From Prorocentrum cordatum (Eukaryota), in contig CAUYUJ010000002.1 in the NCBI GenBank assembly GCA_963575745.1, forward strand, positions 434,001-498,000: a DNA stretch of 64,000 nucleotides, given 5' to 3'. Shown here in pieces: positions 8,421 to 56,779 of this stretch. The notes beneath the pieces were generated by a model that worked only from the letters and a program-made list of their open reading frames with translations, searched no databases and was not told the origin of the DNA. How positions within the stretch are numbered: the stretch's first letter is position 1; every line of letters begins with the position of its first letter. The translations under genes and the position numbers were made by a program.

Positions 8421-8694
8421 CCGCCGTCGTCGACGTCGTCGCTTCCGTCGCCGTCGTCGTCGCCGCCGTCGCCGCCGTCGTCGCCGTCGTTGTCGTCGTC
8501 GCGCCGCGGCCGTCGCGTCGTCGTCGTCGTCGCGGTCGCGGCCGCCGCCCCCCTCCCCTTGGGAGCGAACGACATGTCCGTGCCCACCACCCCGCGGGCT
8601 GGGCCCCTGGGACGCGACCCCGCTGATATCGGCCACGCGCAGAGGAGGCGGAGGAGGAGGAGCAGAAGCAGGAGGAGGAGGAGGAGGAGGAGGG

Positions 8695-8716
8695 TCCGTA
8701 GCCATTTTGGCTCAAG
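8695..8716 (+). other. Exact dinoflagellate spliced leader (DinoSL) integrated in genomic DNA
   Basis: TCCGTAGCCATTTTGGCTCAAG, 22/22 to consensus DCCGTAGCCATTTTGGCTCAAG. It is followed directly by a degenerate relict SL, CCATTTGGCTCTGG (8717-8730). Confidence 0.95.
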
Positions 8717-9070
8717 CCATTTGGCTCTGGCCTGTCCGTTGGCCCCCTGCTCCCGGACCTTGTCCCCGGGCGTACCTTGCGACCCCAGCTTCACGGGGCA
8801 ACGCGGCGTGCGTGGGGGACTTGGGGGAGTAGGGCTCTTGGCTCGCGGGCAACTGGTGCGGGAGGGCGATGGTGTTGATCGCCCAGATCGGCGGACTCCT
8901 GCCGCACGGCGTGCGGCCAGGCAGTGGGCTCGCCGTTCCGCTGACAGAGCAGTCATCAAACTCTCAGGGGAGCTGGCGAGGGTGCGCGGCGCCCACGGGC
9001 AGCTGGTGCACCGTGTCGGAGCCATCGTCGACGATTCGGCACCGGCGGATCGCGTCCTCGCCCTTGTTTA

Positions 9071-9222
9071 CCAGCCTCGAACGTATCCCTATCCCTAAGA
9101 TTGACACGCCAAAAGGCGATGACAATCTTAGGGATTCGCCCTCGAAAAATAAGGGAATCCCTAAGATTGGCATCGGGATGAGGCGATGCCGAACATAGGG
9201 ATAAGGATATGTTCCAGGCTGG
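9071..9222. mobile_element. TA-flanked MITE inserted in the SL-headed retrocopy
   Basis: TA|CCAGCCTCGAACGTATCCCTATCCCTA ... TAGGGATAAGGATATGTTCCAGGCTGG|TA. Confidence 0.85.
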
Positions 9223-11117
9223 TAACTTGTTCCCCATCTCCTGTCTCTCCTTCGCGGAGAGGTCCCGCTGCTGGCCGACGTGCGGAGGCGCAGCGTGGCC
9301 CTCCACGCAGACGCGGGCGGCGCCAGCGTGGCGGCAGCGTCAGACAAGCAGGTGGAAAGGTTTCCAGAAGGGGCCTAGGCTGGAGTGCAGGCGGCTGGGA
9401 TGCGCTGCTCCGGAACCTCCCCACCCATTCATGCTTAACCCCCAGGCCGAGCGTTTCGTTCCCATGGCTGGTGGCGGCGAGCAGCCCGCGGCGGCCACTG
9501 GTGGTACGGGCGTACACAAAGAGTGCGATTCGGAGGGAGAGCTTGCCAGAGACATACCTACTGCTGATGTGCAAGAGGAGCCGTCATCAGAGCGGTCCGG
9601 TTCGGAGGCAGCGGATGATACAGATCGTTTGGCCCCTCCTGCCCTTGAGTTTCCTGCGGATGTCTGCGAGCCGCGGGACAGCTCTGACACGATCGAGGCG
9701 GAGCCTGTCGGTGGTGGGGGTAGTCACTGCCGCGCGCGTCGACGGCACGGAGGAGTCGGTCCCAGGCGGGACGGGCGCCTTCCAGCCACTTTATGCTGCA
9801 GAGTTGGAGTTTGTGATGGCCTCGGATTCTAGCTCGGACTCGGACGTCAGGACCCCGTGGTACGGGACAAGCGAGGCCGACCTATGGGCAGAGAGCAGGT
9901 GTGGGAGGAGTACCTCGCCATGGACTCCCGCGGCTCTCGGCTGCCTGGCTGGCTGCGCCCGCAGTTCGAGGAGCTGGAGGAGTTCTTTGGCATCGTCCAG
10001 GACTGATCTTCCTTGTTTTTCCTGTCTCATCGCAGGCTTTACTAGCGGTGACTGTAGTAGATGAACCAACGGGAGCCAACAGGAGGATGAGTAGGATGAG
10101 GAGGCGGAGGAGGCGGAGGAGGCGGGGGAGGGGGCGGGGGAGATGAAGGGGGAGAGGGAGGGGAAGAGGGAGGCGGAGGAGGAGGCGGAGGAGGAGGAGG
10201 AGGAGACGGGGGAGGAGGAGGCGGAGGAGGAGGAGGAGGAGGAGCGGGGAAAGCTTCTTGGAAGGAGGTCTGTTTCTCAGACGGCGCGAGTCGTTCGAAA
10301 GCTAAAGCCGGCGCGCGGCTGCGGCGGCACATAACAACGGCAACGGCTCTGTCATGCACACGGCTTCTGTGGCGTGCGCGTGCCATGTGGTCTACACAGG
10401 CGCTGTGGTGCACGTGGGCCCTGCGACGCAGGCGCTCAGGCGCTCCATCTTTTGGTACACGCAGGAACTGTGGAGCACGCAGGCACTGCGGTGTACACAG
10501 GCGCTGTGTTGCACACGGCTGTTGTGGTCCACGCAGGCGCTGCGGGTGTACAGGCGCTGCGCTGCACGCGTGCCCCCCCCCCCGCCCCCACCCCGCGCAC
10601 CCACCCCAATCGTTACCGTTACCCCGCCCCGGCCCCCCCCCCGCCCCTCCCCCGTAACAGACGTTACGGGCCCAGAATAAAACAACGCGTTCATGAAACA
10701 TCGTAGCAGATCAGGACTGGAGCCCTAGGTTATGCGCCATTTGTTCAGCCAGTTCGATCCGTGATGGCCCTGGGGCCTGGAGCTCAGCGAAAACGCTTGC
10801 CTCAAACTTTCTGCGCCGTTTTTCTGAGCCGGTTCAATCCGTGATGGCCCCAGGGCCCGAAACTCTGCGCAAACGCTGGGCTCGAGACGTGGGGGCGTCA
10901 GGGTCTCAGAGCGGGTAGCAGTGGTTACGGTGGGGACCCATGCCACGAAACACCCCTGCATGCCTCCAGGGTGCCCTGGGCTTCCTGGGCTTCGATGCTT
11001 TTGTGATGGAAAGCGTGACGCTCCCACACCAGAAATCAATGGACGTCCTGGGATGGGCTTCTTGTCGAAGGTTCCTTGTGGCCTGGCCTCCACTGTGCGT
11101 TTGCCGCTCCGGCACAG

Positions 11118-12943
11118 GCGCGGGCTCCTCCGCGGGCCTCCCCGAGCTGGGCGGCGCCCGCGCGGCCACCGAGCTGGCCGCCGTGCTGCGGCTGCCGCAG
11201 GGCGCCGTGCGCGCCGCGGGTGCCGCCCAGCCGCCCACCGAGCCGCGCAGACGCCGCGCCGCCGTGCCGTCACGCCTTCCGTCGGGCACGTCCCTCTACA
11301 GGAGGAATGTTCAAGAATGATCAAGACATAGTCTGGGGACGATTTTTCGATTTTGGGGTATGCTTTTATTCCTTGAGGGTATGTTAGTGTAGTTTTCAGG
11401 TATGTTTGAGTAGTTTTTTTTTGTAGTTTGGGGGATGTTCTTGTTGTGGGGTATGTTGCGTAGCTTTGAGTAGTTTTGGGGTATGTTTTGGAAGTATGTT
11501 TTGAGGGTGTGATTTTTCGATTTTGGGGCATGTTTAAGTAGTTTTGAACTTTTTGGGGGTAAGCTTTTATCCCTTTCGTCCAAAATCCGCCTGTAGGGGG
11601 ACATGCACGCCGCCTCCGCGCCGCCCCCGCGCCTAGGGGAACGAAGAATGACACAAACATAAAAACTCGGAGGTCCGCGCGGAGTTCTCGGATCCGCGCT
11701 GGGACCCCCCTGGCGGCGTCTCCGGCGCCGCCCCTAGCGCTCCGCGCGCCAAGGAGGGGGGGTCCAGCGCGGATCCGAGAAGCATCTGTCAGAATCGCCA
11801 GATCTCAGAGGTTACCGATCTGTCCCGATCCTGACTTCGTTTCATGCTCCCCCCTCCCCACCCCTCCCCGAAGACCGCCGCGCCTCAGGCATCCGTCAGA
11901 ACCGCCGGATCTCAGAGATATCCTGGCTTCGTTTTATGCCCCCCCTTCCCCTCCTCCCCGAAGACCGCCGCGCCCCAGGCATCCGTCAGAACCGCCAGAT
12001 CTCGGAGATTCCCGATCTGTCCCGATCCTGGCTTCGTGTTATGCTCCCTTTCCCTCCCCCCGTCGCCCCTGCCCCCTCTTCAAGATCCCCAGAGGTCCAG
12101 ATCCGCTCCCAGGGACCAGCTCCTCCTCCCGAGTGGTGTTTTTGTCGCCGGCCCTCGGGCCTCGGGCGAGGGGCCCCTGGGGGGCGGAGAAGTGCCCCAA
12201 AACTTCTTGTCGTTGTCTTTTCGCCACGAGAGGAGGTCGGGGACTCCGAGGAGGCGGAGGAGGAGGAGGAGGAGGAGGAGGAGGAGGAGGAGGAAGGGGA
12301 GGAGGAGGAGGAGATGGAGGAGGAAGAGGAGGAGGAGGAGGCGGAGGAGGAGGAGGGGGAGGGGACTCCGAGCGATGAAACGCTGCCCCGAGCTGACGAA
12401 GCCCCGCAAGCGTGGAGAAAGGGAAGCAACGCAGAGAGCGCATCTGAGTTTTTAACGATTGATGAGGATGAGGATGATGCTGATGCTAATGGTGTTGATG
12501 ATGCTGATCATGATGATGCTGCTGATGATGATGCTGATGATGATGATGATGGTGGTGGAGGGGGTTTTGATGATTATGATGATGCTCCTGATGATGATGC
12601 TGATGATGCTGATGATGCTGCTGAGGATAATGGCGCCGCCGACGACGACGGCGATGACGAGGATGTTGATGATGTTGCTGATGGTGATGCTGCTGCTGCT
12701 GACTGGTGGTGGTGATGGTGATGATGAGGATGATGCTGATGATAATGGTGATGAGGATGATGATGATGATGATGCTGAGGATAATGGCGCCGACGACGAC
12801 GACAATGCTGATGCTGATGATGATGTTGACACTGATGATTGTGACGATGATGGTGATAATGATGATAGCGGAGAAGATGATGGTGATGGTGTTGGTGGTG
12901 GTGGTGGGGTGATGGTGATGGTGATGGTGATGGTGATGATGAC

Positions 12944-12977
<34 letters not shown>

Positions 12978-13333
12978 CTGTTGATGATTATGACGGTGAT
13001 TTTGATGATGATGGTGTTGATGATGAACATGATGCTGGTGATGTTGATGCTGGTTAAGATGATGCTGATGCTGATGATGGTGGTGATTATGATTATGATG
13101 ATAATGATGGCGACGACGATGATGATGTTGATGATGATGATGATCGTGATGCTGATTATGCTGATGATGATGATGATGATGCTGATTTTGATCGTGACAA
13201 GGATGCTGATGATGCTGCTGATGATGCTGCTGCTGCTGATTTTGGTGATGACGATGATGATGAGGAGGAGGATGCTGATGCTGATGCTGATGCTGACGAT
13301 GATGGTACTGATGATGATGGTGGTGGTGGTGAC

Positions 13334-13388
<55 letters not shown>

Positions 13389-16300
13389 GTGATGATGGTG
13401 ATGGTGTCGGTGATGGTGATGGTGATGGTGATGGTGATGGTGGTGATGATGATGAGGAGGAGGAGGAGGAGGATGAGGAGGAGGAAAGGAGGATGAGGAG
13501 GAGGAGGAGGAGGAGGAGGAGGAGGAGGAGAAAGAAGGAGGGAGCAGAGAGGGGAGAAGGGAAGAGGGAGGCGAGAGGAGGGAGGAGGAGGAGGAGGAGG
13601 AGGAGGAGGAGGGAGAAGGAGGAGGACGAGGAGGAGGAGGAGGAGGAGTAGGAGGAGGAGAAGGAGGAGGAGGAGGAGGAGGAGGAGGACTCCCTCCCCC
13701 TAGAGGCGCCCGCTGGGCCCCGCCGCACGAGCCCGCCCCCAGCGGCTGCGCTGCGGCTGGCCTCGACGTGGACCTTGATCTGCTGGCCGAGGCGCCGCCG
13801 CTTGCCACCGCCGCAGCCGCCGCAGCTCCAGGGCAACGCCGGGGGGGACAAGCTGGGCCTGGTGCCAGCCGGGGTCGACTACACGCAAGAGTGACCTATC
13901 GCAGAGTGACCCTTTGTGCGGACCCGTTGGGGTCCTGATCGCCGTACGCGATGCGGTAGTAGCGTCTTGCGCGCTTGTGTTTGGTCCCCCGATTAGCCCA
14001 GGAAAAGCCGCGCACCAAAAATCACTCTTGCCCAGGGTCACTCTTGCGTGTAGTCAATGGGGGTCTCTGGTGACCCAGCACTGGTTCAGGTTCTGGGTTG
14101 GGGCAAGTTTTTGTTGTTGCCTCTTGCGGGCTCTGGGAGCCGCTTTCGGGCCCCGGGGCCGTCAACAACGGATCCGGAGTGAAAGACTGCACATGATGGA
14201 CCCCAGGAGGGGTCTAGGGATCGATTTTGAACTTGGATCGCCCCGCTCGATCTGCTGCCAGCCATCACCTTGAACCCCCCAGCCTAAATGCCTACGCATC
14301 ACCGTGGCATGCCTAGGCATGGCCGTGTCGATGCCTCGGATGCACAGGTATCCGCATGGGTATGCCTACGCATGCACAGAGGGATGCGTCCATGGACGTA
14401 GCTGAACGTAGCTGGGCGTAGCCGATGTCTAGGCATCGGCTTGGTGATGCCTAGGCATCGAGCTGGCGATGCCTCGGCATCGGCAAGGGGGTGCGCAAGA
14501 TAGGCATCAATGGTTCGCGGTAACAGAGCCGCTGGGCCGCGCCAATCTTGAACGGAATCGCATTTTGTCGTCCCGTTTTGACCGGTTTTCTCGGACCCCT
14601 CCAGCTCAGACCCTCCCGCCGCCTCCAAGCCTGTAAGGAGGATCGCGCCGCGTCGCGAACGCATCGGCGATGCGGCTCGACGTGGAGCCCGATTCTCTCC
14701 ACGCCGACGGCGCCGATGCATCGCCGACGTCGCCGATGTATCGGCGATGCGGCGCGATCCTCCAACCCCATCTGCTCGGACGCTATCTGAGCGACCAACA
14801 GCACACGGGGCCGTCTGCGCCGACATTGGCGCGTGAGCTGCCCGCGTAAGGTCGCGCGTGAGCACCCTCGCTTCCAATGTGGCGTGTCGCGCTGGCGGCC
14901 CGCGTAGGCCGCCCCGTAAGTCCGCCGCGCCATCTCGCGTAAGACCCGTTTTGGATCGTCGCTCGTGTGAGAGGCCTCCAGATGTGCTCAGGGGGGAAGG
15001 GTCGACCCCCAGTCGCCCGTTCGCCGCCGAGGGGGACCCGATGGCCCACCTCGCCCAGGGCCGTGCGAATATTCGCGACTAGGGGCCTATCACCGACCTA
15101 TCGGCGATGAATCTGTCGCCGATTCAACGTCAGTGTTTGCCCGCTCGAGCCGATCCCCCGCTAATGTTGCTTCTTGTCGTCGTCGTTATCGTCGCGGCGT
15201 CGTCAGCGTCGGCGGCGGCAGCGTCAGCGTCGTCGTCGTCGTCGTCGCCGTCGCCGTTGCCGTCGTCGTGGGAGGAGGATTGGGAAGAGCACGGTGTGGC
15301 GGAGCATGGTCAGGAGCAAGAGGAGGCGGTGGAGCACGCGTGGGAGAGATCCCCTTCCCTCCCTCTGCGCCTCCTGGCTCCCTCCCTGCCCTCCCCCTCT
15401 CCTTTCCCTCCTGCCCGCTCTCCCCCCCTCCCTCTCGCACCCCAGCGTCGCCGGCATGCAGGCCCTGCGGGTTGCTGGCGCACGGTGTGCGGGGGGAGGG
15501 CTTCGACTCTGGCAGGGAAGAGCCGCATGCGCGCGTGGCCCAACGTACAAACGAGCTGCTACCACAAGGGACGCGAAAGGAAGAGCGAAGCTCCTTCCTG
15601 GGGGGGCTTCGACTCTGGCAGGGAAGAGCCGCATGGGCGCGTGGCCTAACGTGCAAACGAGCTGCTGCCTCAAGGAGCGCGACAGAAAGAGCGAAAACCC
15701 TCCCTGCCCCGCCCCCCCAAACGCGCCCGGGCGCACGGCAGCGCCAAGGGAGCAACCATGAAGGGGACGCGGGGAGCGGCGAATCCCTTGCGAGACGAGG
15801 CGTTTCGTCATTTCAGCGTCTGGACAGCGCCCGCTCATTCTCTGCCTCCTCGTCCTCCTCTCCTCTCCTCTCCTCTCCTCTCCTCTCCTCACTAGTTACT
15901 CCCTCCTCCCTCCTCCTCCTCCTCCTCCTCCTCCTCCTCCTCCTCCTCCTCCTCCTCCTCCTCCTCCTCCTCCTCCTCCTCCTCCTCCTCTCCGGGGACT
16001 TGCCGGAAAAAGGCGGACAGCGACCCAAAACCGCTTGCGCCACGTTCGGGGCACGTGCAGGGAATGCCAGGTGCGCCTGCGCACGTGACAGCACACATCG
16101 GGAAGCACTGCCTGCACACGTGACAGCACCATCTTTGTCGAAAGCCACTGCCCGTCGGTGTGTCCAGTGGGCCTGCGCACAGCAGGCGACGGGCCACCAC
16201 CCCCGCCGTCAAAAACCACTTGGCAGTGATTGCGGGGTGGCCGCGCACGATCCAGATTTCGCCGCGATGTGCATTTTATGCTGATTTTGTCAAGGAGGGT

Positions 16301-18854: not shown

Positions 18855-18896
<42 letters not shown>

Positions 18897-18904
18897 GCCG
18901 TCGC

Positions 18905-18936
<32 letters not shown>

Positions 18937-19029
18937 TCGTCGTCGTCGTCGATGTCGTCGTCGTTGCCGTCGCAGTCGCAGTCGCCGTCGCCGTCGCCGT
19001 CGCCATCCCCGCCGTCGCCGTTGCTGCCG

Positions 19030-19061
<32 letters not shown>

Positions 19062-25000: not shown

Positions 25001-25218
25001 GGGAGGAGGAGGAGGAGGAGGAGGAGGAGGAGGAGGAGGAGGAGGAGGAGGCCTTCCCCTTTTCCTCTGACCAGGGGCAGCAGCAGGAATCAAGTTCGCA
25101 CCGTTAGCGTTGGGAGGAGGAGGAAGAGGAGGAGGAGGATCAGGAGGAGCAGGAGGAGGATAATCCCCTCCCCCATAAGGGGAGGAGCAGTAGAATAGAT
25201 TGACAGGAGGAGATGGAG

Positions 25219-25285
<67 letters not shown>

Positions 25286-25287
25286 GG

Positions 25288-25357
<70 letters not shown>

Positions 25358-34839: not shown

Positions 34840-37800
34840 GCGAGGAGGACGCAGATGATGACGAGGCTCGTATGAGGGAACAAACCAACGCCACAACTCG
34901 TGCTGGTGATTCCTCGCCGCCACGGTTGGGCTCTCCGCGAAAATCTTGTCAGAACGCACCCCAGCAGTGGTTCGGGGAGTAGCGGTACCCGTGTCTGTTC
35001 CCACAGACGACGAGGAGAAGGGTGACGAAACGACGACGCTGCTGAGCCCAGGCGGTGGAGGATGAGGAGGAGAGGCTTGGGGCGGGAGGAGGGGGAGGGG
35101 GGAGGGCAGGAGAGAGGGGGAGAGGGGAGGGGGGAGGGGAGGAGGGGGAGGTCCCGAGGAGGACCAGCAGGAGGAGGAGGAGGAGGAGGAGGAGGTCAGA
35201 GGACTGCTGGGAGGAGAGGGGGGAGACGCCTGAGGAACGAGTATGAGCAGGGGTAGGAGCCAGAGGGACAGGAGGAGGAAGACCAGGAGGACGAGGATGA
35301 GTGGTAGGGGGACGAGCGCGGCAGGATTTCATCAGTGGCAGTGGAGGCTGTGGAGGAAGGGATGGGAACAGGAGAGGAATGGAGATGGGCAGTGGAAGGA
35401 TGTGGGCCTTGAGGACGAAGCAGTGCAGGGGGAGTTCTCCTCCACCGCCTCCCTTCTTCCCGTCCTCCCCCCATGCACCTCCTTGCCCTGCCCCCCTGCC
35501 GCTCCTCCTCCCCTGCTGCCGCCACTCCCCGCTCCTCCTGCCCCTCCTCCTGCTCCTCCTGATCCTCCACCTGCTCCTCGTCGTCCTCCTGCTCCCCCTG
35601 CGACGCCGCTCGCATCGAGTCGCTACGCACGCCCCTTGCTTCCTCCTCCTCTTCCTCCTCCTCTTCTTCCTCTTCTTCCTCTTCTTCTTCTCCTCCTCCT
35701 CCTCCTCCTCATCATCATCATCATCATCATCATCATCCCTCTCCTTCTCATCCTCCCCAGATCTCTCACGTCGTATTTTTTTGGGCCACGTGGCGTCGTG
35801 TTGTTTTCGCCACGTGGATCCCCAGAGGTCCAGACCCGTTCCCTGGAAAGAAGCTCTCTCGTTCGCCTTCCGGGGAGAGGGATGAGGAGGATATCCTCCC
35901 TCCCAGCACCCGAGGAGGAGGAGGAATGGTATTTTGACCGCTACGCCTGCAAGGCCCGCTCTGCTGGGGCTCTTACAACCATCGAACACTGCGATACCAT
36001 GTCCGAGCAGCAGAGTCAAGTGAAGTCAAGGACCGCGCTGGGCCCCCCCGGCGGCGCCTCCGGCGCCGCCCCTGGCGCGCGGAGCGCGCCAGGGAGGGGG
36101 GTGGAGCGCGGATCCAAGAAATCCGTGCAGACCTCCAAAAGTTTATGTTTATGCCGTTTTTGTTCCTGTACTCCTCCCGCCCGCTTCCGCTCCTCCCTGG
36201 GATCTGGGATCTGACGCCTCGAAGACACGGCAACATCGCTAAACATCGCGACCAGAGCCCCAGACCCCATCTTTCGGGGGCGGCCAAGAGGGGGGTGAGA
36301 TCTAACCGCAGACGGTCTTTAATGATGCCCCCCCCTAAGCTCTCGGCGGGGAATAGAAACTCGTCCCTCCTCCTCGTCCTCCTCCTTCCCCTCCCTCCTC
36401 CTTCCCCTCCGTCCTCCTTTTTTGAGCACTTCTCCTGACCTCGCATGCGTCCGCCGACGAGAATAATTCATTTCCAACTATTGTCGGGGTCCCAATCCGT
36501 CAATAAGCCGGCGGACAAAAATATTAATTTTCCAATTATTGCCCGGGGGTTTATTGGAAACCCTTTGGGGTTAGGGGGGGGTGGATGTCATGGCGGGGGC
36601 CACGATACCTCCCCAGATTTCATGACACCTCTCCTTATTTCAATACGTTCCCTGGCCCCCCCTGATCCGTGCACATGCCTCGGGCCATGATTTGCACCCC
36701 CCCCTTCTTGGACACCCCCCTCTTGGACGCCCCCGAGCATTTTTGCACCATTTTTCGAGCCGTATCGATATGTGAGGGTCCCAGGGCCCGAAGCGGGGCG
36801 AACGTGCCCGTTGTGAACAAATAGCAAAGCCAGGATCTCCAGTCTCCTTGCCGCCGCCCGCGCTCAGGTCGACGTCGTCGTCGAGCCAGTGGCCGAGCTC
36901 CACCTGGAGGCCATCGGCGGGGCTTCGCGAGGGGTGCTCCTTTGCTTGCTGTCGTGGGCCCCCAATCGGCGTGGTGACCTCATCGCGTGTCCGTGGGGAC
37001 TCTGTGTCTCCGGACGGTTTTGGGACTCGGGTGGTTCTACCAGGACGTCTCGGGCGAATGGGGACGTGAGTTCGTTGGGGATTCCGAGGTCACCATCTTG
37101 TCCGACACTACACAGCTGTGGTGTGCCTAAACCCTTTTCGTCTGCTTGTTTGAGTATATTGCCTTTGCCCTTGATGTTTACTGTCGCTTCTCCTCCCTCT
37201 CCTCCTCGTGCTTGTGCCCCTCCAGAGCTTCCTCCTCCTCCTCCTCCTTCTCCTCTTCCTGCTTTCTCCCTTCTCCTCCTGGGTCTCCTCGTCCTCGGCA
37301 TCTTGCAGACTTTCCTGCTCCCTCTGTTCTTCCTCCACAGCCGTCCTTTCGCCCTTATGTGGCCTACCTTCGTACTCCTCATATGTAGTTCTCCTGCACG
37401 GTCCAGTTTTTCATATTGAGATGGCGCATGTTCTCTTCTTCGCTTTCACGTAAGTCACCGTCTTCTTCATCTTGGTTATGGGACATCATTGTCATCATCA
37501 ACACAATCGTCAGTATCATCATAGTTGTCATCACCACCATCATCAGCATCATCATCATCATGATTCGACTGCTCAGTATCATCAGCAACAACAGCATCAT
37601 CTTCATCAGCATAATCATCGCCTTTTTCATGTTGGTCACCACCATCAGCATCGCGATCATCATTCTCACCATGATCATCAGCATCATCATCGCCAGGAGC
37701 ATCACCATCATCGGCATCACCATCATCGTTATGCCATCATCATCAGCATCAGCATCATCAACATCGCTTGCATCCTCATTTTCCCCAGCATCATCATCAT

Positions 37801-40800
37801 CATCGTCATCAGCATCACCATCATCACCATCCATTTTGGCTCATTCGGCGGCTGGACGTTGTTCACGTCTTCGCCTCCCTGGGCCGGCCGCGTGCGCCAC
37901 CGCCTTCGCAGGCGAGACATGGGTAACAACACGGGCGAGAATGTGGTGATCCGCAGGCTCGCACAGCGCGTGCGACACCTCGATTTCAAGCTGAAGGAGC
38001 TGGAGCGTTACTCCCAGGAGAGGGGAAGGATCGCGAAGGTGCCGCAGGCAGAGTACATCGAGAAGGTCGTCGAGGCGCCGAAGGTCGTGACCCGAGAGGT
38101 CGAGCAGATCGTGGAGGTGCCGCAGGAGGAGTACATCGAGACGGTCGTCCACGTGCCGAAGTTCGTGAAGGAAGAGGTCGAGAAGTTCGTGAAGATGCCG
38201 CAGGTTGAGCACGTCGGGTAGATCGTCGAGATGCCACAGGTTGAGTACGCCGAGAAGATCGTCGATATGTCCATGGGTGTGACCGAGAAAATCGAGAATA
38301 TCGTGAAGGCGCCGAAGATTCAGAAGAAGGGCGCTGGGAAGATCGTGGAGGTGCCGCAGGCAGAGTGCGCCGAGAAGATCGTCGAGGTGCCGATGGCTGT
38401 GGCCGGGATCGAGGACGTGATCATGCCGCAGGTAGAGTCCGTCAAGAAGACCGTCTGCGTGCCACAAGACATGACCCACGGGATCGTGAAGGTCGTGGAA
38501 GCGCCGCAGGAAGAGTACGTCGAGCAGATCAGCAGGATGCCGAAGGTCGTGACAGAAGAGGCCGAGAAGGTCTTGGAGGCGCCGCGGGTAGAGCACGTCG
38601 CGAAGATTGTCGAGGCGTCGAAGGCTGTGACCGTAGAGGTCGAGAAGGTCGTGGGGGTGCCGCAGGTGGGGCACATCGAGACGATCGTCCACGTGCCGAA
38701 GGTCGTGGCCCATGAGGGCGTGAAGGGCGTGGAGGTGCCGCAGGTAGAGTGCGTCGAGAAGATCGCCGAGGCGCCGAAGGTCGTGACCGAAGAGGCCGAG
38801 ATGAGGTCGAGCAGACCGAGGAGGCGCCGCAGGCAGAGTACGTCGAGAAGATCGTCGAGGTACCGAAGGTCGAGTCCCGCTTGGACGCTGCGGGGGGGGG
38901 GCTTTTTGGATGGCTTCATCCCGATGCAGGATATGGTCAAGCCTCTGACCGCCAGGGTCCAGGCCTGCAGAACAGAGACCGGGGACGTGGGAAACTAGTT
39001 CACCAGCTTGGTGCGCGAGCTGGAGCGGGAGGCATGCGGCCTCTGCAGGAAACTCGAGCACGTAGGCTACGAGACATGAGGAGTTCACCTGAGTTCCGTA
39101 TGGTTATGCTTGGCTGGTCGTGCGCCGCCGTAGCGGGAGCTGAGAGCCAAAGGCAAGAGGCAATAGGCATCATCACCATCGTTATCGTCATCGTCATGGT
39201 CATCGTCGTCATCCGTAGCCCCAGCATCATCAGCAGCAGCGTAAACATCAACATCATCATTTCTCTCGTCAGCATAACCGTCATCATCATCATCATCGTC
39301 GACCTCGCCGTTGGCGTCGTAATCATCTTCGTCGTCATGACCCACATCGACATCGCCATCACCACCATCACCGTCGTCAGCGGCATTATGATCGTGAGTC
39401 TCTTTGTCGTCATCATCAGCATCCTCAGCATTTTCATCACTATCAACAGAATCAGTATCAATATCATCATCATAAACATCACCATCCTCACCATCACCAT
39501 AATCAGCATTGACACCATCACCATCCGCATCATCATCGTCATCATCAATATGATGTCATCATGTCCTTCCTCCTCATCCTGCTCCTCCTCCGTTTCCTCG
39601 TCCTCTGTTTCTTCTTATTTCCATCAGTCGTTCTCTCTTTCTCTCTATACGTATCTCTCCCTCCTCCTCCTTCTCGTACACTTCGTCCTGCGCACCCCGT
39701 TCTCCTGAGCCTGCTTGTGCTCCATGTCCTCCCCATATGATGATTATCCTCCTCCCTCCTTTTTCTCCTTCTCTTCATCTCGAGCCCCTGCCTTCTCGTT
39801 ATCCATCCTTTGTCCTTCTCTCCTCGACCTTGTTCCTCCCTTTCGTTTCCTGTGCTTCGCCCCTCCGCTTCGATCCCCTCTTCTTCGCACCTCCTCCCCC
39901 TCCTCGCCTCTCGCTGCCCCTCGCTCCTCCCCGCTCCTCGCTCCGCCTCATCGCCTCCTTCGTTCCTCCTCGGGCAGGCCGCGGGCGTGGGAGGCGTGCG
40001 TCGCGAGCCTCCTCGCCCCGCCCGCCGCCGCCGCACGTGGCCTGCTCCCGCGCGGGCCTTCCCGGTAGCCCCAGGGGAAGTGTTGGGCGGTCGACCGCAC
40101 ACGCCGCAAGCGCCTCGCCCCGTTTTTCGGTAGCGAATCCCGGGGGCCTGCTAGACCCTCCTCCTCCTCCTCCTCCTTTCCCGCCTCCTCCTCCTCCTTT
40201 TCTTCCTCCTCCTCCTCCTCCTCCTCCTCAGCCTCCTTTTCCTCCTCATTCAATCTCTAACGTCGATTAGCGTCTGGGAGTCGATGAGATGTGCCGATCT
40301 AGCATCGATGAGCGTGGATCTAGCGTCGATGTAACGTCGACTGGCGTCGATTCGCAAGAGCCGACAAGATGGTATGGGAGGTTCCCATGAGTTGCCACCG
40401 AACCCTTCTTCCCCCCCCCCACCCCTTGGGGGCTCGGCCCCCCCCCCACCCACCTTCAGAGGAGGAAGAGGTACCCATTTCTCGCCTTTTTTACCCTTTT
40501 TCCGGCCTCCTGGGAGGCCCTCGTCGCCACCGCTGGATTCGCTTCGAAATCCTGGAGAGGTCCAAGGAGTGGCGGTCTGTGTGCCTTTCGTTTTCTGCAC
40601 TCACCCTGGAGTGTCTCGGAAGCGCCGGGGGGGGAGGGGGAGGTGGAGGTGCGCGACTCCAGAAGGAGGAGGAGGAGGAGGAGGAGGAGGAGGAGGAGGA
40701 GGAGGGGGAGGTCCACGACAGCAAAGTACCCCTCCTCGTTGGCACGCGCGACAGCGAGCCGGCTTGCCCGCTCGGCGGCCAGACGCTGCGCCTCGCGGCC

Positions 40801-41437: not shown

Positions 41438-41476
<39 letters not shown>

Positions 41477-44400
41477 TGTTTGTTCTCTCTCCCTCTCTCT
41501 CTCTCTCTCTCCCTCCCTCCCTCTTTTACTCTATAGCTTTCTCTCACGCTCTCTCTCACGCTCTCCCGCTCTCACTCTGTATCTCTGCCTCTCACACACA
41601 TTCTCTCACTCTATCTATCTCTCACTCGCTTCATACGTCGTTCTCTCTTCCAGCGCGCAGTTCTTGCCAACACGTTCTAACACGTTCCTCATCCCTCTTT
41701 CCTCTTCTCCTCCCTGCCCCCTCCTACCCCCTTCCCCCGCCAACCTCCTGCCTGTTCCCCCCCGACGCGGGGGCGAAGATGAGAGTCGCCAAGGCACCGC
41801 CAACACTCGACGAGTGGTTGTACGGCCCTGACGGGTGACGCTGGTGTGGGCGCGGGAGTACGGCGCGCACACGACCAGCAGCGCTGCCGCGCGCGCCCCG
41901 AGAGCGCGCGTGGGCGGCGAGAGCGACATAATCGCAGCTCGACATGTCGCGAAAGGGCTCCTCCCTCCCTCTTTGTCCTTGCCTTACCAGTTTGAAACAT
42001 ATCCCTATCCAGTGTTTGGCATCACTTGACCTCGATGCCGATCTTGAGGATCTCTCGGAGCTTTGAGGGCACATCCCTGATATTGTCATCGCTTTTTGCT
42101 CGCCAATTCATGGGATAGGGATAAGCTCGAGGCTGTTTTTTTTGGGGGGGGGAACGAACACCGACGTAAACATACAACTCGGTCCGCGCGGACTTTTCGG
42201 ATCGGCGCTGGGGGCCCTTGGCGGCGCCTCCGGCGCCGCCCCTGGCACGCTCCGCGCGCCAGGGAGGGGGGTCGAGCGCGGATCCAAGAAACCCGCGCGG
42301 ACCTCCGCGTTTTCATGTTTATGTCATTCTTCGTTTCCCTATTTTCCTCTCCATCCTCCCTCCTTCCCCCCTCTCCCCCTCCCCCTGCCTCCTCGCCTCC
42401 GCCGTGTGACCGCAGTAGCGAGCGGCAAACAGTGCCTGCTGGCGCGGCGAGCCTGCGCAAGTGTTTCTGTCATGTTACACGTTCCCCTATGACTGCCCCC
42501 CTCCCGCCCTCTCCCCGTCTGCCCCCGCGCCCCGCTGGCCCAGGCCCCTCTGGGCGACGCCCTCGTGCCGGTCCGCAGGGGCCGCGCCCTCGGAAGAGCC
42601 GGCCCCCTCCAGCCCGGGCGGGGGCGAGGCGACGACGGCGCACCCAGCGGGCGTGCCGAGGGGGGGGAAGTGAGAGATTGGACGGGGCCAGGGCTCGGAG
42701 GAGGAAAAGGTACCCAAGCCTGTACCCTTCCCTCGTTTTTCTCTTTTTTGGAGCCTCTTGGGAGGCCTCGTCGCCACCACTGGATTCGCCTCGAAATCCT
42801 GGTCAGAACGCGCCCCAGGAGAGGGCCGTGGGGTAGCGGTATCGGATCCCTTCCGTTTCTCCAAGGACGAGGAGAAATCCGTTCCAGAGTGTTGCGGAAC
42901 GCTCTCAAAGCGTTCTGGAACGTTCTGAGGAGGCCGCGGCTCCCGAGACATCCTCGAGACCCACCAGATCTCAGAGACTCTTGCCTTATCCTCACCCGAT
43001 GTTGTTCTCGTCCTGGCTTCGTCTTGAGTGAGAGGGGGCTAGGTCTCTCGATGAGGCATCAGGTGTCAGGGGGAGGGAGAGGGAGCGGGCCTTCTCAGAA
43101 GGCCACTGGGCTTTTCAGATGGCGTCGCGGCGTGTCAAAACCCCCCCGGTCTTCAGAGAGGCCATGCGTGGATTCGGAAAAGGTTCCGAAGGCGCCCCCA
43201 TTTGCCCCCCCCCCCCCGTGTGGGCGCGCCCCAGGCACACTTTTCCGTCGGCGGCCGGTCGACTGCCTTCGCAACGAGTACCAGTGCGGGCCGCACCCAG
43301 TTCAGCTATCACCTGGCGTTGCAAATGGGGGGTCAGGACGTGGCTGACGCGCCTGGAAGACAGAAGAGAAGGGCGGCGGAGCGGGTGCATGTGGAAGACA
43401 GACATGCAGACAGGTGAGCGGTGCCTCCCGAGCAGTGCAGAAGGGAGACTCACTCGCGCGACCATCGCGGCCCGTAGCCCACTGAATGGCACGGGGCGGC
43501 GGTCGGCGGTGCGGAGTGGCAGCAGCGCAGCAGGCCCAACTGCGAGGGCGAGCAGCGTGGACTGCCCCTCGTGACCCGCTGACGGGGGATCGGGAGGGCG
43601 CCCGAGAAGACTGGGGAGAGGGCCCAACGAAATACGAGGCGTGGACGGCGGTAACGCGGGCGTGAACGCGGGCGTGAGGCAGAGACCCACGCGCCAGAGT
43701 GCAGACCGGGGACACCCACGGCTCACCGGGCCAGTCGGGAAGAAGCAGCGGGCGCCGGCAGCCGCCCCCTCCCGCCAGAGGCGAGAGTGGCGTGCGCAGG
43801 CCGGGCAGGACGTCGGCGCCTCTGCCAAGCGAGGAGGCCACGTGGACGCGCGGCCCTCGGATCCCGGGCGTGGGTGGCCGTCGCGTGGCGGTGCGGAGCG
43901 GGGCGAGCCGCGGAGAGGTGCCACGATGCGGAGAGGGCGCCCAAAGGCGAGTCCGGCCCCAGAGGCCCGAATGTCAAGCAGTGGCGAAGCGTCCTGGCGT
44001 GCCCTAGAGGCCTACCAGCCGATGTTCTAAGAACCTTCTGTGGTCCGCACGAGCTGTTCGGAGACCACTTCTGGCCGGCGCTGACTTGTTTTCAGAACCT
44101 TGTTCTAAGAACCTTGTTTTTGTTCTTGGAGCATGTTCGGGTTCTAAGAAAATTTCATGGTGGGCCTATAGAAATGAGAAATGCCGGAACGGTCGGTCTC
44201 TGCTCAAGCGTGGGTGGTCCCGCACAGGCACCCTGACCGCACGGGGGGCAGGTAGACTTATGCCGCCGACGCGCAAATGCTTGGGCGGTCGCGGCCTTGC
44301 GCGCGGCGACGAGGCGGGAAGTCCCCAAGCGGCTGGAGCGCGTGCGCCGCGGGCCCCTCAGAAGATGGGGCGGGGCTCCAAAGGTATCGACCTCACCAAG

Positions 44401-46773: not shown

Positions 46774-46800
<27 letters not shown>

Positions 46801-46807
<7 letters not shown>

Positions 46808-46927
46808 TGTTGGCTCAAGAATCTTCAGGGAGCAGGACCCTGCCGAGACTTTCGTCGTCGCCGTCGTCGTCGTCGCCATTTTGACCTCGCGTCGTCGTCG
46901 TCGTCGTCGTTGCCATTTTGGCCGAAG
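46801..46927 (+). other. Cluster of three degenerate DinoSL copies, each preceded by (GTC)n
   Basis: GCCATGTTGGCTCAAG (46804-46819, 15/16), GCCATTTTGACCTC (46875-46888) and GCCATTTTGGCCGAAG (46912-46927, 14/16). Confidence 0.7.
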
Positions 46928-48188
46928 CTTTCTAGTCCGTCCGCCCGCACTGACCGCCAGCATTTTGTTCGGCCAGCCTCACCCCTGAGGCATTCGCACC
47001 CACAGGTTCCTTCATGTTCGCTGGGCTGCCATCCGCCGCTTCTTCGGGCTTCCCTACCGCAGCTGCCGCCGCGACACCACCCGCCGCAGGTGCAGCTCCC
47101 GCTTCTCATGTCATGCTGCTGATATAAACGTAGATGGCACCAAGAAGGCGCGTGTGGACGCCCGCATCTTCCCGAGGGCCTCGACCCTGGTGAGGCGCGC
47201 CTTTTCCGAGCCCTGACCGCAGACTTTCGTGCCACCCTGGCGGTTTCGGTTTCGCCCCCTCCAAAGTAAGTATGACCGCTGCATCGGGAATATCAACAAC
47301 ACATCCAAGACGGTGACTGACTTGAATAATGATTTCATCGACTTGACTGCCAGAGTGAGTGTGCTAGAGAACGGCGGAGTCAATGCACCCCCTCTGCACC
47401 ACCATCCTTTCGCCCTGTCTGCTCCTTCGCCTTGCGCGCACTGCCCGACGTACTGACTGCTTCTGCTTCCGCAGCTATACCATTTTGGTTCTAGGGAAAC
47501 GGAAAAGGAGCGAGCCTGCGGCGCGCGCGCGTGCGTCGGCCGGCGGACCGGCCTCCTCCCTTCAGTGCTACCTTCGTGTATGCTTGACGGAATTATCCCT
47601 TCTTGTCCATGTCATCGGCGGAGCCCACTGACCATGATACATTACCAGAACATTTCGCAGGGATTGTGAAGATCCCGGCAAAAGAGTGGTTACCAGCCGG
47701 AACGACGGCACAGCCGTTAGGTTCGCAGAGCATGGGATCACAAGAAGGAGCGTTCCGACGAACAGAAGATCGCTACCCTTCCGAGCGCAACGAAGGTCTA
47801 GGCTTTCCAACGAGGCGACAAACTCTTCTTAACCTCCCCAGGAAGCAAGCATCATATATTGTGTTTGACTGGACAGAAGGGGATTCATCGGTTAATTCGG
47901 CGACAAGGCCCAGAGCACAGTCATCTGGCGGAAGGTGTGGCACAGCCAAAACTTCGGCCGAGGGACCATCTGACTTGGTATCGGTACGCCCTGGCTTTCA
48001 GCCATCGATTGACATAGATCTTGAAATGGAACAGTTGTTGGACCACGTCCCCATTGGAATTTCGGTCGCCGAAAGTCTCGGCGCAGGACATGCGGCGCAG
48101 TTTGCGATGCATGGACAGGGCGAGGATTCGAGCGACTTGAAATAGGATGGGGATTGTTCTCGTTCGATTGAACAGACCGAAGAATATA

Positions 48189-49852
48189 ACCTCATGCCCG
48201 TGCGAATAAACACTAGGGGATAATAAAGTTCGGGGTTCAGGGAGAGATAATAAAAGTAGCCCAGCCGACCTCAGCATAGTCTCGAAGTAAGAGATGATCA
48301 AGAGGAGACCAAGTCGAGCACGTTTTGAGACATCATTGGCGTTTAGTTTTCATAGAAATATCCTCAACAATGGCTTATCTCGCTGGAGACATCCTCGACA
48401 AATCCCTTGTTTCGCTTGAGACATCCGCAAACTATTGCTTATTTCGCTTGAGACACAGTCGAACTATTGCTTATTTCGCTTGAGACATCCTCGAAATAAT
48501 TGTGGTTTTCGCTTGTAACGTCCTCAACTTATTGCTGATTTCGCCTGAAACATCCTGAAACTATTGCGTATTTCGCTTGAGACATTCTTAAGAAACGCAT
48601 CGCTTCGCTTCAGACATCTATATGCTGGTTTCGCTTCGGGCATTCTCGAGTATATGCTTGTTTCGCTTGAGACATCCTCGGAATAGTTCATCCGCCTCGG
48701 CGTCCCTAGATAATCAACGGCGGCGATAATAAAGTTCAGGCGGGCGGAGGAATGGAGGAAACTGTATATAAAAAAAGAAAAATAAAAATAATAAAGAAGA
48801 AAATAAAAGAAATGATCGGAGGAGGAGAAGGACGAAGCGAAGAACAAATCTCGAGTTTCAAATCTATTAGATTTTATTACAAGCGCTTTATGAAAATTGT
48901 GTTTTGTAAGTGCTCGTGTAGGGTAGCTCACGTGCCTCAATTTCCATGGATAATCAACCCCAGAGACAAAAAAAGTTCAGGCGTGCGTGGGAACAGAGAG
49001 AAATATAAAAGAAGAAAAATACAGTAGAATAATATTCAGAAAGAAGAAGAATAATAGGATAATAAGAAGAGGACGAAGAAAGGAAAAATCCAAAGTTCCA
49101 AACCTATCAATTTTAATTTACAAACGCTTTATAAAAATTGATTTGTTTAAGTGCTCGTGTAGGGTAGCTCATGTGCTTCATTTTCCATGGATAATCAACC
49201 CCAGGGATAAACACGTTCAGGCGAACGTGAGGACACATAGAAATATACAAGAAGAAGAGGAACATATAATAATAATAGGAAGAGAAGAAGAAGAGAAGAA
49301 GAATAAGAGAAGAATAACGGAAAAATGGAAAGTTCCAAATCTACCAATGTTAATTTACAGGCGCTTTATGAAAATTGATTTTTTAAAGTGCTCATGTAGG
49401 GTAGCTCATGTGCTCCTCTTTCCATGGATAATCAACCCCAGAGATAAAAACAAGTTCAGGCGCGCGCGGGGGCAGATACATATATAAAAAGGAAGATAAT
49501 AAAACATATAAATAAAAAAGAAAAAACTTGCTGGTTTGGCTTGAAACATCCTTGAGACATCCTCACATAATGCTGGTTTCGCTTGAGACATCCTTGAAAC
49601 ATTGCTCGTTTCGTTTGAGTCTGCCTCCCAAAATTATTGGTTTCGCTTGACACATCCTGAAAAGTGTGATCGCTTCGCTTGATGTTGCTATATCAACATC
49701 GCTTGATGTTGCTATCTCAACATAGCGTTTCGAGGTGATAATGAAATTCGGCCGCAGCGCTCGCCGCCCAATTTGGATTTTTTATAGGGCGACGATAATC
49801 AACTCTAAACACTGAAGGGGGGGGGGTCCCTTCATTATCATCGGCATGCGGT
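48189..49852. mobile_element. AT-rich non-autonomous DNA-transposon-like insertion with subterminal repeats
   Basis: TA|ACCTCATGCC ... GGCATGCGGT|TA. About 32-bp repeats TTTCGCTTGAGACATCC near both ends and a ~240-bp unit x3 in the centre. Confidence 0.55.
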
Positions 49853-53623: not shown

Positions 53624-53806
53624 TAGATGCAACAGAATTGTCTCATGGATCGACCCGGTGGTGAGTTTTGATTTTTGGTCCGTCCCCGACGCCCCCACTA
53701 CGCCTGTGCAGCCACAGGCAACCCCTTTCGCTTAGCATGATATAGGATATAGACGGCCAGGACTTCAGCGTCACTCAGAGGCTGCGTGATGATGCTGATG
53801 ATGTCG

Positions 53807-53883
<77 letters not shown>

Positions 53884-54741
53884 TCGGTCGTCTCAGTTGT
53901 CTCAGTCGTCGGCTTAGTCGTCGTCTCAGTCGGCGTCGTCGTAGTTGTGTTCGTCGTCGCCGTGGAGTCGCCAAGTCGTCGGCAAATCGTCGTCAAGCAA
54001 GGCGTCGTTCTCGTCGAGCCGAGCCGAGCCGATCCAATTCCAGATCTGGCCGTCGGGTCGTCCTCGCCCTCGTTCCCCCCCCACTTCCCCCCCCCTCCCT
54101 TCTTCCCCCTTCTCCGCGCGCCCCCCCCCGCTCCTTCTTAATCCCACTCCCGCCCGCATCTGCCCCGGGAGGGGCCATCGTCCCGCTGGGCTCGGCCGGC
54201 CCAATCCCCAACCATAACCCCTTTTCGTCGTGGTGCTCGCCCTCGCCCCCCCCCCTCTCTTCGTCGAAGGCTTCTCCCCCTCCATTGCCTTGTCCACTTG
54301 TCCGCCGCCTTCCCCTCGCCCTTGCGCCCCCGTTTGCACGGCTCCAGGAACTGCGTTCGCGCCGCGATCCAGAAGATGGGGGGGGAAAAAGGAGAGAGCA
54401 CGACGAAGACGACGACCACGATCCTTTCCTTCCTTCCTTGCCAGCTCCTGCAGTTGTTCCTCGTCCTTCCGCCTGCTGGTTCGTCCTTCTCTTGCTGCCT
54501 CCCCCGCCAAGTCTTCGTTCTGCCAGTCTATCCCCATGCAACAAGAACGAGGCCTGTTCAGATCAGGAGAGGAGGGGAAGCAAAACGTTTCCTCCTCCTC
54601 GTATGCTCCTTCTCCCCACCAGGTCCTCCTCTTCCTCCTCCTCCTCCTCCTCCTCCTCCTCCTCCTCCTCCTCCTCCTCCTCCTGTTCGTCACCCTCGTC
54701 CTCTCCCTCTTCCCCTCGTCCTCAGCACCTCCTTTTCCTAG

Positions 54742-54893
54742 GCGACGGTGGCGTCGTGCTGTCCAACCGACCCGGCACCGTGCTGGTGCTGCCGCTGCGG
54801 CTGCTTGCCGGCGCGGCGGGCGCGCTCGTGGGGGAGCTGCGGTCGGGTCCGTTCCACGACCAGGAGTGCCCCGCGCTTTGCTCGCACCTCGCG
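54742..54893 (+). CDS. Candidate exon (DGGVVLSNRPGTVLVLPLRLLAGAAGALVGELRSGPFHDQECPALCSHLA)
   Basis: Pyrimidine tract plus TAG acceptor, GC3-rich codons, island between repeats. Confidence 0.4.
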
Positions 54894-56246
54894 GCTGTGG
54901 AGAGGAGGAGGGATCACCGAGCGCATTCCACTACTCGCAAGGTGCCCTGTTTAATTTCATCTGACACACATGCTCGCCCCGATGTCGTGGATCTTGAATC
55001 CACCGCGGCGGATCGGGGCCATTCGCGAGCAGGTGCTCTGCGAGTGGTGGAACGTGCTTGTCTGAAGGAGAGAGGTGGACGACGAGCGTCGTGGTCGTCT
55101 TGGTCTTTGTCGTCGAGATTGTCGCCATTTGAGGGGGAGGGAGGAGGAATGAGGGGTAAGTGGGTAGGAGGGAGAGGGAAAGGGAGTAAAACCGGCGCAG
55201 GAGAGGGAGATGGTAGAGAAGCAAGCTAGGCGCGCTCTCGCCACATCCGGTCTCCTACCCCTCCCACTCATCCCGTCCCATTGCGTAATTGTTTCGTTTC
55301 TATCCGTGGACTAGTGTCATAGTGGATCTGGGACTCCCAGAGATCCCATCGTGCTGTGCGCAATCGGAAAATCGAGTTGAGCAGGAGGAAATGACAAAGG
55401 ATGAGGAGAAGGAGGAGGACGAGGACGAACAGCAGCAGCAGGAATTTGAGTGGAAGGAGCGGGAGGAACAGGAGAACCATGGGAAAGTGGGGGATTCGAA
55501 AGGAGTGGAGCGAAAACGATGAGGAAGGATTCAGATGCAGAAAAGTGCCCCGTGCTTTGACAAGAGCGCCAGTCTGAAGGACGCGAGCAAAGCGCCGATC
55601 CGAAAATGAGGCTAGCGCTGAAGTGGGAAAACCAATTGTATACACGGCAAACAGTCGGTGTGAAACAATGCCAATGCCAGAAGAGAAACAACACCACAGT
55701 TGCTCAATCCTGTGTCTGAAAACAGTGCGCAGAGAGGGCGAGATATCTTCTGGACAGAGTCAGGAGGGAGAGGACAGTAGTATTCATAATGTGTAATTGT
55801 AGAAGGAGGAGGCCGGAGCGAGGAAAAGGAAAGAGAGTCGGAGGAGGACGGAGGATGAGTAGGAGGAGGAGGAGGAAGAGGGAGGGGGGTGGGGGACACA
55901 GGGGCGAAGGAATCATAACAGGGAAAAACACATAACCCCCCCGCGGCATCGGCCGCCCACCGAGTTTGTCAAGTTTCTTTGCTTTTGCCTTTTTTTCCTT
56001 GTCCTTGTCCTTCTCCTCGCCCAGCCTTACCTTGTCCTCGGTCCTGGGGAGACCGGCCAGGGAAACAGGCCTTGCAGAACGTACAGGTCCTGCGGGGGCT
56101 GGAGATGTATCCAAGAGACGGTACCAGCATCGCAGCAGGCAGAGCACACAAGATATGGAGGAATTCGCACGCGGGGCCGCGCGTCGCCCCAACTTGGCCG
56201 CTTGGCCGCTTTTTGAGCAGAGGTTGGGAAGTTAAAGAGCAGGCCC

Positions 56247-56268
56247 CTTGAGCCGAAATGGCTACGGA
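56247..56268 (-). other. Near-exact DinoSL (21/22)
   Basis: Reverse complement reads TCCGTAGCCATTTCGGCTCAAG. It abuts a (CTC)n tract upstream (56269-56313) and heads about 340 bp of non-repetitive sequence ending near another GAG/CTC tract (~55860-55890). Confidence 0.9.
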
Positions 56269-56779
56269 AGAGGAGGATAAGGACGAGGAGGAGGAGGAGG
56301 AGGAGGAGGAGGAGTCTTCGATTTGCATCGGTGTCCTTGTCCAGCTAACTAAAGCCGACTGCTCGTGGACACCGCAGAGCCTGGAACTGTCCAGGGGGCC
56401 TTTGGAACCAGTGGGAACGCATGGCCAGGTGCCGCTGCCAGTGCGCGCGCAGGCCTGGCTGTGGCACCATGGCGCGGGAGTAGCTCAAAACCTGTTGCGA
56501 GATTCTTCCCGCGACCTAATGTGCCTGTGCAAGGCCTCAAGCCTTTCTTCCCAGGTTTGTGTGCTCAAGGAACGGAGGAAGGACAAGGAGTGAACCGAGG
56601 ACGAGCGAGGAGGAGACAAGGAGGAGGGGATTAAAACCTGGTCTAAACTATTTGCTGCTCTTCTGGAAGCCATTCTACTATTACTATTCATTTGCTGCTG
56701 CTGCATCTGCTGCGGCTCACTGTCAGTGCTTCTGCTCTGCCTGCTGTCGCTCACTCCGCTCACTTCTTCCGCTCCATCG

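Follow-up and report, generated by a model that had tools for sequence, protein, structure and literature searches.

Retroposed spliced leaders adjoin tandem repeats in a 64-kb stretch of dinoflagellate DNA

Introduction

Retrogenes tagged with the dinoflagellate spliced leader (DinoSL) are a known feature of dinoflagellate chromosomes, and relicts of the leader have been reported in about a fifth of the gene models of two Symbiodiniaceae genomes (PMC5585692). Here, we analyze a 64-kb stretch of Prorocentrum cordatum DNA (contig CAUYUJ010000002.1, positions 434,001 to 498,000; hereafter the window, with positions counted from its first base), in which DNA-encoded spliced leaders (SLs) head putative retrocopies and, at four of five loci, follow directly on a tandem repeat. 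DinoSL-tagged retrogenes as described share with these loci the DNA-encoded 5' leader, a coding sequence downstream, and, at site 1, a truncated relict after the full leader (PMC5585692, PMC7245778). They differ in that the heads here abut a tandem repeat and that two of the sites lack poly(A). The process itself, the formation of SL-tagged retrogenes, is known; the repeat tract at the insertion site is the new aspect.

In the portions of the literature available to us, the entry of complementary DNA (cDNA) into dinoflagellate chromosomes is attributed to long interspersed nuclear elements (LINEs) merely as a presumption. A literature search of main texts found no paper tying DinoSL retrocopies to microsatellites. 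In the excerpted text of PMC5585692, the terms "microsatellite", "simple repeat", "flank", and "insertion site" have zero occurrences each, as do "repeat" and "insertion" in that of a 2018 retrogene review (PMC6050394), and in that of PMC11453091 "microsatellite" is confined to the reference list.

Elements specific to microsatellites are known from animals and plants and include LINEs, helitrons, and miniature inverted-repeat transposable elements (MITEs) (PMC3812793). Among the LINEs, Waldo targets ACAY, Mino AC, Kibi TC, and Koshi TTC (PMC3812793), and LINEs with a restriction-like endonuclease and microsatellite targets are known as well (PMC4640811). A non-long-terminal-repeat retrotransposon of this kind inserts into an existing microsatellite, which then borders the insert at either end (PMC3812793, PMC4640811), as may also be the case in the window. 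These elements are autonomous and use one motif each, whereas the cargo here is a host mRNA, with no reverse transcriptase (RT) or endonuclease (EN) found nearby and with a dozen motifs in use. The present case works somewhat like the microsatellite-specific elements and is not a member of the group, since it has neither an RT/EN of its own nor specificity for a single motif.

Endonuclease-independent insertion of L1 elements has as its hallmarks integration at lesions and junctions with filler bases or a short overlap. An alternative LINE-1 insertion pathway has been described (PMC1920257). The loci analyzed here resemble such insertion, or the capture of cDNA at breaks, in their filler or short overlap and in having no enzyme consensus; in contrast, a target-site duplication or deletion is not recognizable inside a tandem repeat, and the link to repeats is one that we infer. 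Repeats and retro-inserts are also physically associated where microsatellites are born from the poly(A) tails of Alu and L1 elements (PMC3812793). Those tracts are 3', A-rich, and derived from the element, whereas the repeat here stands at the 5' cap end, can have any motif, and is apparently older.

Results

The window is 61.4% G+C and has a single 100-N gap at 27744-27843. It is dinoflagellate nuclear DNA, because exact copies of the dinoflagellate spliced leader are present. Tandem Repeats Finder (TRF) returns 342 rows across it, of which 62 have period 3, chiefly AGG/CCT, ATG/ATC, and CGT/ACG. An exhaustive search of both strands with the 21-mer core of the leader, a 15-nt relict, and shorter cores yielded five independent DNA-encoded SL head loci. 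The 21-mer core lies at three places, at 8696-8716 (+) with no mismatch, at 56267-56247 (-) with one, and at 46799-46819 (+) with three, and had no match in 100 shuffles, which rules out a chance origin of the heads. Relict and short-core searches add 37831-37845 (13/15), 46913-46927, and 47480-47494.

At site 1, a full DinoSL at 8695..8716 (+) matches at 22/22 positions with T as its first base, and a relict SL abutting it at 8717..8727 (+; TRF period-14 repeat at 8700-8727) marks an earlier round of retroposition. The head of site 2, at 56247..56268 (-), has one mismatch, a T-to-C change within the T-run, and that of site 3, at 37831..37845 (+), is a 5'-truncated or relict SL matching at 13/15. 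Site 4 (46775..46927, +) holds three decayed SL heads, which end at 46819, ~46889, and 46927 and have their own (GTC)n before each; the one at ~46875-46889 lies in between the other two. A relict directly following a full leader is thus seen at site 1, and the heads of site 4 are serial and separated by (GTC)n rather than abutting. The four DinoSL heads claimed in a first-pass annotation of this DNA are all genuine. The fifth, absent from it, is a decayed leader at 47469..47495 (+) with a 4-5 nt insertion; it has no repeat upstream (periodicity 0.50-0.61) and is the sole head to break the rule described next.

A head was scored as adjacent to a repeat where a 24-nt stretch with at least 80% periodicity, at period 1-6, ended within 5 nt upstream, and the background was obtained by scoring every second position of the window on both strands. 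Four of the five heads pass, compared with 6.7% of window positions (P=9.6e-5), so that the enrichment of simple sequence repeats within 5 nt upstream, which follows from the first-pass annotation, is present within the window. It persists at a periodicity threshold of 0.7 (background 11.6%, P=8e-4), with a tolerance of 15 nt (background 9.1%, P=3e-4), and at an assumed background of 20%, where four of five heads still give P=0.0067. The claim that each of the four heads starts at the edge of a tract is also borne out, as they begin 0-5 nt after (GAG)n, (CTC)n, (CAT)n, and (GTC)n, respectively. The (GAG)n before head 1 (8642..8693, +; TRF period 3, 17.3 copies) ends 1-2 nt before the leader, the imperfect (CTC)n before head 2 occupies 56266..56314 (-; a TRF period-3 row), and a long imperfect (CAT)n precedes head 3 at 37484..37830 (+; TRF 37484-37831, 61% matches, periodicity 0.83).

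The association is also seen from the side of the repeats, where a leader suffix score of at least 8 occurs at 4/192 repeat-zone boundaries and at 0.08% of random positions; the head of site 2 is outside those four, the stricter zone ending 13 nt away. As a control, we used 20 copies of other dispersed repeats within the window; one of their 40 ends, defined by BLAST rather than as exact element ends, abuts a repeat (Fisher P=1.6e-4 versus the heads). The youngest head, the 22/22 leader of site 1, is already on a 52-nt tract, which therefore needed no long time to grow.

SL RNA genes, which usually form arrays, have a GT intron with an Sm site after the leader exon. The heads are not such genes, as a relict or a cargo comes next, with no GT intron, and Rfam gives zero matches in the window at the gathering score. 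Weaker resemblances to a leader were noted apart from the five loci. A copy of the leader's initial 9 nt (TCCGTAGCC) lies at 39212-39220 (+), within the (CAT)n-type tract past cargo 3. This copy was rejected as evidence, the 8-mer CCGTAGCC occurring at three sites besides two true leaders, this one included. Between 19130 and 21113, two lower-GC unique segments (0.9 and 0.7 kb) lie between three (GGA)n tracts, and the first of them shows TCAAG at its minus-strand end, directly after the repeat, either as a severely truncated head or by chance. A possible sixth head on the minus strand, at 20169-20164, would be heavily truncated and has a (CCT)n tract on either side; it was likewise set aside, its match of only 5-6 nt being at chance level.

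What the heads carry is recognizable in one case. Cargo 3 (37846..39167, +) is related to the alveolins, with matches to the Pfam family IMCp (inner membrane complex protein; PF12314) at 38231-38998 (E=6.7e-16) and 37478-38221 (E=2.4e-6). Both open reading frames (ORFs) are in one frame, with an in-frame TAG at 38219-38221, and the cargo is predicted to be an intron-free alveolin copy, a pseudogene or nearly so. Cargo 1 (8728..10080, +) has no family match, and its ORFs at 9186-10064 and 9209-9832 and the stretch 9465-10007 have no Pfam match; cargo 2 (55882..56246, -), of about 365 nt, has no family match either. Of the 78 window ORFs of at least 150 aa, 68 were scanned with Pfam. The sole match above the cut-off among these is IMCp, with no RT or EN domain found. 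We found no cargo paralogues within the window that could delimit the inserts. The view that the loci are retrocopies of SL-capped mRNAs is supported by the full leader with its relict at site 1 and by the intron-free IMCp frame of cargo 3.

The first-pass annotation further held that each cargo ends, without poly(A), near a tract of its upstream motif, so that the insert splits a tract. The downstream tract is present at three sites, with the upstream motif and strand in each case: (AGGAGG)n past cargo 1 at 10081..10244 (+; TRF period 6, 9), a (CTC)n-type tract past cargo 2 at 55840..55881 (-; TRF period 3), and an imperfect (CAT)n past cargo 3 at 39168..39301 (+; perfect core at 39281-39297). 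Site 4 fails in this respect, as 6.9 kb, including (AAG)n and (GGT)n tracts, separate it from the downstream tract claimed for it (~53800), which cannot be assigned to its cargo. Site 3 provides the most telling pair of flanks, because ATC-class zones are scarce (4/78 repeat zones of the window). We drew a baseline from 30 neighboring zone pairs, 300-3000 nt apart, that bracket no SL head. The same motif and strand are shared by 8/30 of these pairs and by 3/4 SL-headed inserts (P=0.06), so that the concordance of flanks does not rise above the window's own baseline.

The absence of poly(A) is upheld at sites 1 and 3, where the 3' end shows no poly(A) remnant and no A-run precedes the downstream tract. 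It is insecure at site 2, where cargo 2 contains an A-rich stretch (56000-55974) that may be a decayed poly(A) tail about 90 nt before the downstream tract, and at site 4, with A-rich low-complexity DNA at 48760-48820. A stretch of ~240-nt tandem units with very A-rich low-complexity stretches also lies at 48703-49496, 1.8-2.5 kb past the heads of site 4.

Full-length heads meet the repeat at the first base of the leader, with 1-4 extra bases in the environmental loci L162, L164, L177, and L213 (see below). At the 5' join, repeat and leader are linked directly, either through 0-4 filler bases or with 1-3 bases shared by the repeat and the start of the leader. In 8/9 heads with a perfect tract reaching the leader, the first base of the leader extends the repeat (P=0.0098 for random phase), and at site 2 the leader-opening TCC is in register with (CCT)n. 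This pattern is the signature of a short-overlap join rather than of a sequence-reading enzyme. All three heads of site 4 have GTCGTCG or GTCGTTG in place of the leader's DCCGTAG, in register with the preceding (GTC)n. A leader variant with an ATCGTAG start, and ATGTTGG, is quoted for Polarella (PMC7245778). At site 4, the (GTC)n may be an outgrowth of the 5' end of the leader itself, or three successive insertions may have been guided by an overlap of that end with (GTC)n.

Independent data come from metagenome contigs, which we scanned for the 3' part of the leader joined to a relict, a pattern that is independent of the upstream sequence. At least 119 SL+relict loci were found; prokaryote genome contigs gave one such locus and viral contigs none. 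The counts of environmental heads in this paragraph and the next hold among the matches listed. These include 116 distinct heads. Upstream DNA is available for 69 of them, whereas the other 47, transcript-like or cut, lie within 30 nt of a contig start. A simple repeat is abutted by 17 of the 69, compared with 1.0% over the same loci (P=6e-19) and an upstream-flank background of 1.23%. The repeat periods are 2 (n=10), 3 (n=3), 4 (n=2), 5 (n=1), and 6 (n=1), and 13 named positive heads stem from 10 record sets. About 12 more heads, judged by eye and not counted, follow an imperfect or more distant repeat or a minisatellite. Only 30-160 nt of upstream DNA is available at 14/17 positives. Where the assembly extends more than 160 nt upstream, the comparison is fair for short tracts, and 3/35 such heads abut a repeat (P=0.009). 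No additional leader copies were found elsewhere in 118 metagenome loci. The adjacency is real in environmental DNA as well, and its magnitude is uncertain.

Both flanks can be judged at nine of the 17 repeat-associated loci, the other eight being uninformative with the main ORF leaving the contig. At L125, about 100 nt of an 11-mer minisatellite precede the head, and the array returns past the 0.8-kb cargo for more than 600 nt. At L170, (AT)n precedes the head and returns past the stop codon, after 42 nt and an A6 run. Both patterns could also be mimicked by units arranged in tandem. The splitting of a tract is plausible, at 3/4 window sites (P=0.06) and 2/9 informative environmental contigs, and is not statistically established.

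One environmental locus, L156:3-2432 (-), has an SL+relict head and two ORFs, the first of 458 aa and the next encoding an endonuclease-reverse transcriptase domain of APE type (PF14529, E=4.4e-7; PF03372, E=1.6e-4). By these domain matches, L156 is a LINE-like element with a 5' spliced leader, and its head and endonuclease domain together indicate that dinoflagellate LINE RNAs are SL-capped and retrotranspose with their leader.

Discussion

We favor the reading that the loci are ordinary SL-tagged retrocopies joined preferentially into pre-existing repeat tracts, and give it a probability of about 45%. In this scheme, an mRNA with a trans-spliced leader would be reverse transcribed up to the cap-proximal base, and the resulting cDNA would be joined into the chromosome, preferentially inside tandem repeats that were present beforehand, whatever their unit. 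Microsatellites would serve as landing tracts irrespective of motif, as would one minisatellite or more, and the tract would come to abut the leader and, where visible, to resume past the cargo. End joining or a template jump would fit the direct 5' join. Since the motifs are diverse, both strands are used, and the junctions show a short overlap, the cause seems to be structural (breaks, nicks, accessible single strands) and not a motif-specific nuclease; repeats might be favored as break- or nick-prone, structurally accessible DNA rather than by an enzyme reading their motif. The reverse transcriptase would most likely come from LINE-type elements, with a repair polymerase as the alternative. 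LINEs are the obvious candidate source because, judging by L156, their RNAs are SL-capped in dinoflagellates and are retrotransposed with the leader.

The first-pass annotation had proposed that integration is non-random with respect to microsatellites. The enrichment in the window and the 17/69 environmental heads speak for this, whereas the selection of the window and the uncertain environmental background speak against it, and we regard a bias toward repeats as likely but unproven.

The alternative that survives best, which we nevertheless consider doubtful, is that there is no targeting: integration would be random, and heads would land in tracts since the genome is rich in harmless simple repeats. 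The concordance of flanks would then come free, neighboring tracts often sharing their motif. Several observations favor this alternative and weigh against a bias. The window was picked, after the fact, for showing the pattern, so that its P-values are optimistic, and it holds just five heads, of which one has no upstream repeat by the adjacency criterion. Repeats span 6.7-11.6% of the window by that same criterion. Flank concordance is no higher than in the window's ordinary neighboring tract pairs, 8/30 of which agree in motif and strand, and if the A-rich stretch of site 2 is a decayed tail, the downstream tract of that site is not an insertion boundary. In the environmental set, short-read contigs break at long repeats, so that the true repeat share is higher than the background measured on them. 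Published shares of simple repeats are 13% in clone ends of Alexandrium ostenfeldii (PMC3229502) and 24-25% in Polarella glacialis (PMC7245778). Among the matches listed, 17/69 has P=0.0004 at an assumed share of 10%, 0.006 at 13%, 0.21 at 20%, and 0.57 at 25%; it is unremarkable at a share of about 20% or above, and the excess vanishes once simple repeats make up at least 17-20% of the genomes. In the same set, 52/69 heads have no upstream repeat by the criterion, and in 7/9 informative contigs the sequence past the ORF, 110-1058 nt, contains no tract of the upstream motif. Taken alone, the environmental data may be compatible with random landing in repeat-rich genomes.

Against random landing, four of five heads in tracts would be improbable even at a repeat share of 20%, and the other dispersed repeats of the window are not located at tracts, with one of 40 ends abutting one. 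Environmental heads still show a 7-fold excess in the subset where assembly allows a fair comparison (3/35 versus 1.23%, among the matches listed). The phase of the junctions is non-random (8/9), and a long-read assembly of one dinoflagellate, the nanopore assembly of Amphidinium carterae, has just 1.94% simple repeats (PMC12584245).

A second alternative is a dedicated, repeat-primed retroposition, as the first-pass annotation had suggested, in which a retroelement enzyme nicks microsatellites, or a strand of the repeat pairs with the RNA and acts as the primer of reverse transcription. The same-motif flanks at three window sites and at L125 and L170 would fit such a pathway, as would the lack of poly(A) at sites 1 and 3 and the SL-headed LINE among the environmental loci, and the APE-type LINEs Waldo, Mino, Kibi, and Koshi are an animal precedent (PMC3812793). 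However, known specific elements target one motif each, and the units hit here are AGG, CCT, ATC, and CGT in the window and AT, GT, CT, CCCT, AAC, ACAT, GACA, CCACA, and an 11-mer elsewhere. With at least 12 different repeat units, among them the 11-mer minisatellite, no motif-specific enzyme is indicated. Sites 1 and 2 moreover use opposite strands of one motif relative to the sense of the cargo, the 68 scanned window ORFs contain no RT or EN domain, and the 52/69 environmental heads that stand clear of a repeat count against a dedicated pathway too. We find it unsupported by these data and improbable.

Least probable by a further step is that the repeats grew after integration from the retrocopy's own ends, from its tails or, as (GTC)n, from the leader start GTCGT(A/C)G: all three site 4 heads are in register with (GTC)n and have a tract each, the Polarella leader variant is one or two changes from (GTC)2 (PMC7245778), and in mammals the birth of microsatellites from the ends of retroelements is well documented (PMC3812793), whereas the remaining motifs are unrelated to the leader sequence, one repeat flanks the cargo on both sides at three window sites and as a >600-nt 11-mer minisatellite at L125, and young heads with perfect leaders already abut long tracts.

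If the preferred reading, joining into existing repeats, is true, the bias would be a first handle on the integration step of retrogenes. It would explain how retrogenes build up without wrecking genes and connect repeat content to the growth of gene families. If the bias does no more than mirror how much of the genome is simple repeat, the finding is an ordinary one. A wider version, in which retroposed mRNAs and SL-capped LINEs would land preferentially in tandem repeats throughout the dinoflagellates, seems to us rather unlikely as things stand; under it, breaks or single-stranded repeat stretches would capture or prime the cDNA of capped mRNAs. This version would mechanistically couple two hallmarks of these giant genomes, rampant retroposition and the abundance of simple repeats, with new gene copies continually seeded into gene-poor repeat DNA.

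Additional Observations

The exact leader 21-mer also occurs in viral contigs (L001-L119), where AT-rich bins of giant viruses contain it at 134 distinct sites. These sites have no upstream repeats. A AAAATTGA-like octamer lies 48-50 nt upstream of the 21-mer at 124/134 sites, and 49-50 nt upstream at 113. The virus genes thus bear a DNA-encoded host leader at fixed spacing behind a promoter-like motif, and we found no paper combining "AAAATTGA" with "spliced leader".

The window itself has further repeat features. Twice, at 12248-13689 and 24976-26009, a (GAG)n is followed by 0.7-1.0 kb of (TGA)n or (GAT)n and then by (GAG)n again. A doubly variant repeat word, GGATGAGTAGGA, has exactly two copies in the window, at 10085-10096 and 55853-55864 (+), with single-variant forms occurring nine times. 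Both copies are within the 3'-side tract of a cargo, sense to cargo 1 and antisense to cargo 2. Finally, cargo 1 contains a foldback or MITE-like insert with terminal inverted repeats at 9072-9225, which is related, in inverted orientation and with 76% identity, to 41984-42135.

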